A DNA stretch of 64,000 bases from Escherichia coli (GCF_022846255.1 NZ_AP025682.1), one strand, 5' to 3'. Positions 16,397 to 17,413 are shown, counted from the stretch's first letter. Notes: generated by a model from the sequence alone, not told the origin. A program made the numbers and translations.

Positions 16397-17356
16397 GTGG
16401 CACAACGAGATTATGTACGCCGCAGCCAACCGGCACCTTCGCGGCGAAAAAAGAGCACCTCACGGAAAAAGCAACGAAATCTGCCTGCGGTTTCTCCCGC
16501 TATGGTCGCTATTGCTGCCGCCGTTCTTGTGACCTTTATCGGTGGTCTGTACTTCATTACGCATCACAAGAAAGAAGAGTCCGAGACGCTGCAAAGCCAG
16601 AAAGTGACCGGAAACGGACTACCACCAAAACCAGAAGAACGCTGGCGCTACATCAAAGAGCTGGAAAGTCGCCAGCCGGGTGTGCGTGCGCCTACAGAAC
16701 CTTCTGCCGGTGGTGAAGTGAAAACGCCGGAGCAACTGACACCAGAACAACGCCAGCTTCTTGAGCAAATGCAGGCTGATATGCGCCAGCAGCCAACGCA
16801 GCTGGTTGAAGTTCCATGGAATGAACAGACGCCGGAACAGCGTCAGCAAACGCTACAGCGCCAGCGTCAGGCGCAGCAATTAGCGGAGCAGCAACGCCTG
16901 GCTCAGCAGTCGCGTACGACTGAACAAAGCTGGCAGCAGCAGACGCGTACGTCGCAAGCCGCGCCGGTACAGGCGCAACCGCGCCAGTCTAAACCGGCTT
17001 CTACTCAGCAGCCGTACCAGGATCTGCTGCAAACCCCTGCGCACACGACCGCGCAGTCGAAGCCGCAGCAAGCTGCGCCGGTTGCTCGTGCCGCTGACGC
17101 GCCAAAACCGACGGCGGAGAAAAAAGACGAACGCCACTGGATGGTGCAGTGCGGTTCGTTCAGAGGCGCGGAACAGGCAGAGACGGTACGTGCTCAGCTG
17201 GCGTTCGAAGGCTTTGACTCAAAAATTACCACCAACAATGGCTGGAATCGTGTGGTGATTGGCCCGGTGAAAGGCAAAGAGAACGCAGACAGCACCCTCA
17301 ATCGCTTGAAGATGGCGGGTCATACAAACTGCATTCGGCTCGCCGCCGGGGGTTGA
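16397..17356 (+). CDS. ftsN: cell division protein FtsN
   Basis: 319 aa, Gln/Pro-rich repeats, C-terminal SPOR domain. Confidence 0.95.
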   Translation: MAQRDYVRRSQPAPSRRKKSTSRKKQRNLPAVSPAMVAIAAAVLVTFIGGLYFITHHKKEESETLQSQKVTGNGLPPKPEERWRYIKELESRQPGVRAPTEPSAGGEVKTPEQLTPEQRQLLEQMQADMRQQPTQLVEVPWNEQTPEQRQQTLQRQRQAQQLAEQQRLAQQSRTTEQSWQQQTRTSQAAPVQAQPRQSKPASTQQPYQDLLQTPAHTTAQSKPQQAAPVARAADAPKPTAEKKDERHWMVQCGSFRGAEQAETVRAQLAFEGFDSKITTNNGWNRVVIGPVKGKENADSTLNRLKMAGHTNCIRLAAGG

Positions 17357-17379
17357 AACCCTCAAAATCCCCCCCATCT
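17353..17379 (+). promoter_or_regulatory. sigma-32 heat-shock promoter of hslVU (TTGAAA-13-CCCCATCT)
   Basis: matches sigma-32 -35/-10 consensus; -35 overlaps the ftsN stop codon. Confidence 0.65.
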
Positions 17380-17393
17380 ATAATTGCATTATG

Positions 17394-17413
17394 CCCCGTA
17401 CTTTTGTACGGGG
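17394..17413 (+). other. stem-loop ccccgtac-tttt-gtacgggg in hslVU leader (may also terminate ftsN)
   Basis: 8-bp perfect stem followed by TTT, 35 bp upstream of hslV. Confidence 0.5.

Follow-up and report, generated by a model that had tools for sequence, protein, structure and literature searches.

The hslVU (clpQY) protease operon of Escherichia coli is very probably served by a σ32 (RpoH) promoter that is followed by an mRNA-stabilizing stem-loop in the leader. As we picture it, σ32 RNA polymerase would recognize the −35 element TTGAAA and the −10 element CCCCATCT and would start at A17388, giving a 61-nt leader of which nucleotides 6 to 27 would fold at once into a GC-rich hairpin of 8–9 bp. 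This hairpin would confer a longer life on the hslVU mRNA, and polymerases arriving from ftsN would mostly read through it because its U tract is weak. The σ32 dependence, the transcription start site (TSS) and the structure-dependent stabilization are drawn from the literature, and the sequence motifs, Rfam membership, conservation and covariation from the analysis described here.

The 64-kb stretch of the E. coli chromosome that was analyzed, which we call the window and to whose first letter all positions refer, carries the gene order cytR-ftsN-hslV-hslU-menA. In the ORF list, cytR occupies positions 15274–16305, ftsN 16397–17356 (TGA stop at 17354–17356), hslV 17449–17979 (GTG start) and hslU 17989–19320, the last three in agreement with the annotation. 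All four genes lie on the + strand, as do menA and rraA, and the same strand holds for every feature below unless stated otherwise. The operon served by the promoter thus comprises hslV and hslU (17449–19320). A Shine-Dalgarno sequence, AGGGG (17437–17441), is located 7 nt upstream of the GTG, and its GGGG columns are nearly invariant in an alignment of relatives. Positions 17000–17700 were matched in 5425 of 5426 complete E. coli genomes, where the annotations are ftsN and hslV; identity to two E. coli strains was 100%, and the spacer between ftsN and hslV does not differ from that of K-12 MG1655. Positions in MG1655 (NC_000913.3) are obtained by subtracting the window position from 4139736. 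This coordinate map is validated independently by the downstream end of the hslVU transcript determined by SMRT-Cappable-seq, since that end (4120362) corresponds to window position 19374 and falls on the U tract that belongs to the hairpin at 19349–19370.

The −35 hexamer TTGAAA (17353–17358) contains the ftsN stop codon, and the −10 octamer CCCCATCT is found at 17372–17379 by inspection as well as by pattern search, which leaves a spacer of 13 nt (17359–17371). A homopolymer run of seven C residues (C7, 17369–17375) extends from the spacer into the −10 element. The end of the −10 element is overlapped by a TATAAT hexamer (17379–17384), which resembles σ70 or σS elements and is not accompanied by a good −35. 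A first-pass annotation of this DNA had claimed a −35 element with the ftsN TGA inside it and a −10 element 13 bp further on, and both claims are borne out by the sequence and the ORF list. The σ32 consensus reportedly given by Nonaka et al. in 2006 is TTGAAA, a spacer of 13–15 nt, and CCCCATNT. A search of the 64-kb window for the strict pattern TTGAAA-N12-15-CCCCATNT gave a single hit, as against 0.01 expected from shuffled sequence. Chance occurrence of the promoter or the hairpin was rejected on account of this uniqueness and of the fold of the hairpin (z = −5.3). Like other σ32 promoters of E. coli (dnaK, groE, ibpAB), that of hslVU combines a perfect −35 hexamer and −10 octamer with a 13-nt spacer, has its TSS 8 nt past the −10 element, and is known from published work to be rpoH dependent and heat induced. 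It differs from them in that its −35 element is made from the last codons and the stop of an essential gene, ftsN.

Genetic data reported by Lien, Yu, Liou and Wu in 2009 (PMC2681174) match the assignment of this promoter to σ32, which the first-pass annotation had proposed as well. Heat induction of the native transcript as well as of clpQ(hslV)::lacZ fusions required rpoH and not rpoS, as assayed by a shift from 30 to 42°C and with the use of rpoH mutants. A C-to-T exchange in the −10 element, which changes CCCCATCT to CCTCATCT and which by our mapping of primer F3 affects C17374, lowered expression and abolished heat induction (PMC2681174). An alternative would be that the promoter works mainly with σ70 or σS by way of the TATAAT hexamer, the σ32 match being secondary. 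This hexamer is perfect where it overlaps the end of CCCCATCT, a residual basal expression was seen in rpoH mutants (PMC2681174), and predicted σ70 promoters in this region are discussed in PMC10044804. However, no acceptable −35 element is found 17 nt from the hexamer, TTGAAA being 20 nt away, and a σ70 scan called no promoter at the TATAAT site. Moreover, the TSS at 17388 lies just 3 nt past TATAAT, which is too close, yet at the right distance from CCCCATCT. The site had been considered as a putative RpoS −10 by Lien and colleagues, who found that neither mutation of rpoS nor mutation of the site had an effect, in contrast to rpoH and σ32 −10 mutations, which were effective (PMC2681174). 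Finally, relatives belonging to Erwinia and Pantoea lack TATAAT yet retain TTGAAA-N13-CCCCAT. We regard a main role of σ70 or σS as extremely improbable and σ32 as the factor in charge.

The position of the TSS was taken from SMRT-Cappable-seq data (Yan et al. 2018, PMC6131387), in which an hslV-hslU unit was defined under two conditions at NC_000913.3 4120362–4122348 on the reverse strand. Its start corresponds to A17388 of the window, 8 nt past CCCCATCT and 5 nt ahead of the hairpin stem. Published TSS maps had been named in the first-pass annotation as the check on the promoter, and the start indeed falls just downstream of it. The parts of the supplements of Kim et al. 2012 and of the 2016 Cappable-seq study that were available to us hold no entry for hslV, and the coordinate comes from SMRT-Cappable-seq only. 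With the GTG at 17449, this start defines a 5′ untranslated leader of 61 nt (17388–17448), which as a whole folds at −21.8 kcal/mol (z = −3.4). By contrast, Lien et al. 2009, relying on earlier primer extension, gave 71 bp as the distance between the GTG and what they call the "first" start site. Their full-leader construct likewise contains the 71 nt that precede the GTG and was amplified with primer F5, in which CATCTATAATTG opens the annealing part (PMC2681174). A leader of this length would put the start at window position 17378, within the −10 element, and thus conflicts with the 61-nt leader from SMRT-Cappable-seq. Given the wording "first" and "arrows" in PMC2681174, several start sites may have been mapped in that work. 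The hairpin is downstream of the start under both values.

Between the promoter and hslV, an inverted repeat of 8 nt with 100% complementarity and a loop of 4 nt is formed by CCCCGTAC (17394–17401) and GTACGGGG (17406–17413), which is the perfect 8-bp stem-loop that had been noticed at the outset. A wobble pair between G17393 and U17414 possibly extends the stem, making it 8–9 bp long, so that the 5′ stem-loop with its loop UUUU spans positions 17393–17414; fold and covariation support it in addition to the repeat. RNA corresponding to 17388–17420 folds at −17.0 kcal/mol (z = −5.3), a stability equaled by none of 200 shuffled sequences. With the TSS at 17388, five unpaired nucleotides, AUUAU, precede the stem. 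The hairpin and the leader through the GTG (17394–17451) match the Rfam family RF02401 (ClpQY_promoter) with 63.6 bits, as compared with a gathering score of 42, at E = 1.8e-12 and over model positions 1–57 of 57. RF02401 is a cis-regulatory family whose model consists of an 8-bp stem-loop and the rest of the leader as far as the GTG. The element in the window is the same as the one on which this family and the clpQ+Y+ 5′UTR stem-loop of PMC2681174 are based, as judged by sequence, 8-bp stem, leader and GTG. A REP or mobile-element hairpin was considered and rejected, RF02401 being the sole Rfam family above threshold for the hairpin. On the opposite (−) strand, an antisense copy of the hairpin extends over 17389–17413 and folds at −15.4 kcal/mol; the 3′ end of an antisense RNA maps to 17389, which is the Term-seq position MG1655 4122347 (+).

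Conservation was assessed by a scan for HslV with one genome per species, which yielded 80 loci, mostly from Enterobacterales with a few from Vibrionaceae and Alteromonadales. In 77 of these loci hslV is preceded at a short distance by a σ32 pattern, and the strict pattern occurs exactly once in 66 of the 80. The overlap of stop codon and −35 element is likewise widespread: in 68 of 78 promoter-bearing sequences the TGA within TTGAAA closes an ORF that is 100 codons long or longer. For E. coli and the majority of relatives, the ORF that ends in the −35 element encodes FtsN, whose C-terminus follows the pattern ...CIxLxxGG. Exceptions to the overlap include Budvicia and Vibrionaceae, where ftsN ends 50–100 nt upstream.

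The hairpin is found at the equivalent place in nearly all Enterobacterales. The leader, taken as the segment between predicted start and ribosome-binding site, folds with z below −2 relative to dinucleotide shuffles in 69 of 78 cases (median z −3.6), and in 62 of 78 the hairpin begins 4–7 nt from the predicted TSS. These hairpins comprise 73 distinct sequences. For a test of covariation, 46 leaders were aligned with MAFFT without regard to structure and evaluated against a structure of nine pairs. Cells of the alignment were paired in 86% of cases, as compared with 74.5% in shuffles and 39–56% when the partner was slid. Compensatory changes were present in eight of the nine pairs, 54 cells showed double changes versus 16 in shuffles, and none of 500 shuffles reached the observed covariation. 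A U-A to C-G swap in a close Escherichia relative is one example of such compensation. Since the sequence of the stem varies while its pairing is kept, it is the structure and not a specific binding sequence that appears to be maintained. The Rfam model itself captures a limited part of this diversity: RF02401 was at threshold in just nine of 20 diverse loci, and hairpins that are longer or have diverged, namely those of Photorhabdus, Xenorhabdus, Edwardsiella, Dickeya, Tatumella and Proteus, escape it.

That the hairpin acts as a 5′ stabilizer, as the first-pass annotation had put forward, finds direct experimental backing in PMC2681174, where loss of the stem-loop reduced both level and half-life of the mRNA and restoration of the fold rescued it. 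Specifically, deletion of 40 bp of the leader or of the inverted repeat resulted in less mRNA and protein, and after addition of rifampicin, mRNA lacking the inverted repeat decayed much faster than the wild type (PMC2681174). When one arm was changed to T's, which breaks the fold, the message was as low as in the deletion, and when both arms were swapped for a different complementary sequence with the same fold, the level of message was restored (PMC2681174). In these stabilization experiments, transcription of the constructs was driven by an arabinose promoter, the leader having been inserted at a KpnI site, and the authors remarked that obvious motifs for RNase E or RNase III were absent (PMC2681174).

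Most likely, the hairpin would stabilize the message by impeding RNase E/RppH, either in attack that depends on the 5′ end or in scanning, in the manner of the 5′ stem-loops of ompA and papA. In ompA, 2–4 unpaired 5′ nucleotides are tolerated, and five are borderline for full protection. Like the stem-loops of ompA and papA cited in PMC2681174, that of hslVU is stable and may count as close to the 5′ end, and it is structure rather than sequence that stabilizes. It differs from them by the five unpaired nucleotides ahead of the stem and by the fact that stabilization was seen on transcripts from a foreign promoter. As the leader was placed at a KpnI site behind the arabinose promoter, the hairpin probably occupies an internal position within the 5′ region of those transcripts. 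For this reason, a barrier to scanning would fit the data at least as well as protection of the end.

It might be argued that a hairpin in the leader of a heat-shock operon is suitably placed to serve as a regulatory switch, that is, as an RNA thermometer, a target of an sRNA and Hfq, or an attenuator, rather than as a constitutive stabilizer. In the fold of the full leader, CUCU at 17420–17423 pairs weakly with the GGGG of the ribosome-binding site, and lineages with a U-run past the hairpin could attenuate transcription. However, the ribosome-binding site is outside the hairpin, and a GC-rich stem of −17 kcal/mol would not melt at 42–45°C. No temperature-sensitive segment and no effect of Hfq were detected in PMC2681174, and the rescue by an unrelated sequence of the same fold reported there speaks against a switch, as does the freedom of the stem to vary in sequence among relatives with pairing kept. 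A switch is thus highly unlikely in our view, and the constitutive stabilizer is the reading that we adopt.

A different question is whether the hairpin, besides stabilizing hslVU mRNA, also brings transcripts of ftsN (and of cytR-ftsN) to an end by intrinsic termination. In that case the promoter of hslVU would be enclosed by the stop codon of ftsN on one side and the terminator of the same gene on the other. The hairpin is the first stable one past the stop codon, the distance of 37 nt at which it follows is typical for a terminator, and it has a GC-rich stem of 8–9 bp, a 4-nt loop and a UUU tail. Because the promoter overlaps the stop codon, which lies inside the −35 element in 68 of 78 relatives, no other terminator of ftsN fits into the available space. 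Conversely, three Photobacterium loci in which ftsN ends further upstream possess a separate canonical terminator ahead of the promoter. A cytR-ftsN unit ending after ftsN has also been defined by SMRT-Cappable-seq (PMC6131387). Furthermore, 16 of 79 relatives have four or more T residues in a row right behind the hairpin. The run amounts to T7 in two Tatumella, T6–T7 in three Pantoea and T5 in Dickeya, Pectobacterium and Erwinia psidii, with Proteus and Moellerella also among the 16; true U-runs are thus a feature of some Erwiniaceae, Pectobacteriaceae and Morganellaceae.

Against such a role in E. coli stands, first of all, the tail UUUGUACU, which has four T's in eight positions and a longest run of three. 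Of the first-pass description of a hairpin with a U tract, the hairpin holds and the U tract is overstated, there being just UUU. A terminator scan that demanded at least five T's in eight positions did not call the leader hairpin, but it called the real terminator of hslU (hairpin at 19349–19370). The latter, the intrinsic terminator of hslVU (19349–19377), has a 9-bp stem followed by UUUUAUU, and the SMRT-Cappable-seq end at 4120362 (19374) lies within it. The leader hairpin shares with intrinsic terminators such as this one the GC-rich stem of 8–9 bp, the 4-nt loop and the position after a stop codon; unlike the hslU terminator, it has a U tract of UUU only, no sense-strand 3′ end known from mapping, and documented read-through. 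In those supplementary tables of PMC7815308 (Adams et al. 2021) that were accessible, neither a sense-strand 3′ end nor a Rho-termination region is listed at MG1655 4122200–4122499; Supplement 1 of that study is a curated list of Term-seq 3′ ends from three growth conditions. Weak 3′ ends could be hidden by low expression of ftsN. Read-through transcripts covering ftsN, hslV and hslU have been reported, and removal of the hairpin made downstream expression fall, not rise (PMC2681174). The earlier suggestion that the hairpin terminates ftsN transcription is therefore not supported as far as an efficient terminator in E. coli is concerned, in view of the weak U tract, the lack of a 3′ end and the read-through. 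Such an efficient terminator is practically excluded for E. coli, and partial, leaky termination of ftsN as a second function beside stabilization is a possibility that we hold to be rather doubtful.

We entertain with similar reserve the idea that the hairpin is a shared element working in two directions, namely as a leaky terminator or 3′-end anchor of ftsN and as a 5′ stabilizer of hslVU, with the promoter nested between. The nested layout of stop codon, promoter and hairpin is in any case conserved across Enterobacterales. If the idea is true, then in lineages with a U-run, such as Tatumella, Pantoea, Dickeya and Pectobacterium, transcripts initiated 5 nt ahead of the hairpin would have to escape the terminator. 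Escape of these transcripts while those of ftsN stop would amount to termination that depends on the start site.

The C7 run at the junction of spacer and −10 element is a recurrent target of mutation in heat-evolution experiments, and mutations in the hslVU promoter are on record from three such studies. One is a 2-bp deletion in the run (17369–17375; PMC10044804). Another is a 1-bp deletion described as "intergenic −74/+19", which was fixed in E. coli rescued at a lethal temperature (PMC7750951). It maps to window position 17375 and hence to the C-run of the promoter, a link that went unrecognized in PMC7750951.

The promoter, its σ32 dependence, the leader hairpin and the stabilizing role of the latter have all been published, and the hairpin constitutes a curated Rfam family; these aspects of hslVU expression are already known. 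Mildly new are the discrepancy between leaders of 61 and 71 nt, the distance of 5 nt that separates the hairpin from the 5′ end, and the conservation of the overlap between stop codon and −35 element through most Enterobacterales. The same can be said of the hairpins that the Rfam model does not recognize, of the terminator-grade U-runs in some lineages, and of the placement of published heat-evolution mutations on the C-run of the promoter. The relatives with U-runs are the place to ask whether one and the same hairpin ends one transcript and protects that of the next gene.

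The published accounts give two lengths for the hslVU leader. The functional paper of Lien et al. 2009 (PMC2681174) reports 71 nt, which corresponds to a start at 17378, inside the -10 element of the sigma-32 promoter, and the SMRT-Cappable-seq operon map gives a leader of 61 nt starting at A17388. Several start sites may have been mapped, because the wording of the older functional paper includes a 'first' start site and 'arrows'. A perfect TATAAT hexamer at 17379-17384 begins on the final base of the sigma-32 -10; it lacks a usable -35 element, and the hexamer is missing in the Erwinia and Pantoea relatives.

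Curated Term-seq data (Adams et al. 2021) place the 3' end of an antisense RNA at 17389 on the - strand (MG1655 position 4122347, + strand). The 3'-terminal sequence of this RNA is ...GGGGCAUAA-3', and its end directly adjoins the sense start at 17388, lying 5 nt beyond the antisense copy of the leader hairpin and lacking a U tract. A promoter for this transcript was searched for and none was found. The end could have been generated by exonuclease trimming, with the hairpin holding it, or by polymerase halted at the occupied promoter. A mechanically called ORF of 90 amino acids (17389-17661, - strand) runs antisense to the start of hslV, and its UAA ends exactly at 17389; the coincidence of this stop with the antisense 3' end is probably fortuitous.

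Among the 80 related hslV loci (one genome per species, each numbered in its own coordinates), a run of 5-7 T directly follows the leader hairpin in Tatumella, several Pantoea, Dickeya, Pectobacterium, Erwinia psidii, Moellerella and Proteus (L040, L061, L065, L070, L073, L036, L043, L051, L053 and L060; leader region at about 1440-1490). Since the hairpin is immediately succeeded by these T residues, the leaders of those relatives have the shape of a canonical terminator a few nucleotides downstream of the heat-shock promoter. In Photobacterium (L071, L074 and L077, at about 1370-1440), a canonical terminator hairpin with T-run precedes the hslVU promoter, and 50-85 nt separate the end of ftsN from the -35 downstream of it. 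In Pectobacterium zantedeschiae (L048:1292-1500), the distance from the sigma-32 pattern to the downstream hslV is about 180 nt as compared with about 70, with an insertion of ~110 nt between the -10 and a remnant of the 3' arm of the hairpin and its T-run. Siccibacter, Mangrovibacter, Photorhabdus and Xenorhabdus carry far longer hairpins at the same position (49-68 nt, down to -28 kcal/mol; leaders of 99-115 nt in L029, L039, L042, L046, L050, L052, L063, L067 and L068), and the Rfam family RF02401 (ClpQY_promoter) missed all three such loci that were scanned (L029, L042 and L067). Tandem TCGCCTC heptamers are present upstream of hslV in one Vibrio locus (L079, about 1370-1430).

Other known RNA elements in the window, taken as matches above Rfam thresholds, are a SECIS_3 selenocysteine insertion element (51901-51959, + strand), five tandem copies of the REP-type naRNA4 (46228-46666, - strand) with a single copy elsewhere (37587-37664, + strand), an L31 ribosomal-protein leader (12730-12782, - strand) and a borderline match to ES036 (32541-32582, + strand).

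A C7 run at 17369-17375 lies within the spacer and -10 of the hslVU promoter. The 1-bp deletion 'hslV/ftsN intergenic (-74/+19)', which went to fixation in two populations that had been rescued at 43 C and is labelled in that study a 3' intergenic rather than a promoter change (PMC7750951), maps to 17375, in this run. Strains BM28 carry a 2-bp deletion in the run (PMC10044804), and another evolved line acquired an SNP somewhere in the hslVU sigma-32 promoter that shifts it towards consensus (bioRxiv 2024.10.01.616104). Across heat-evolution experiments, the C7 run is a recurrent mutation target.
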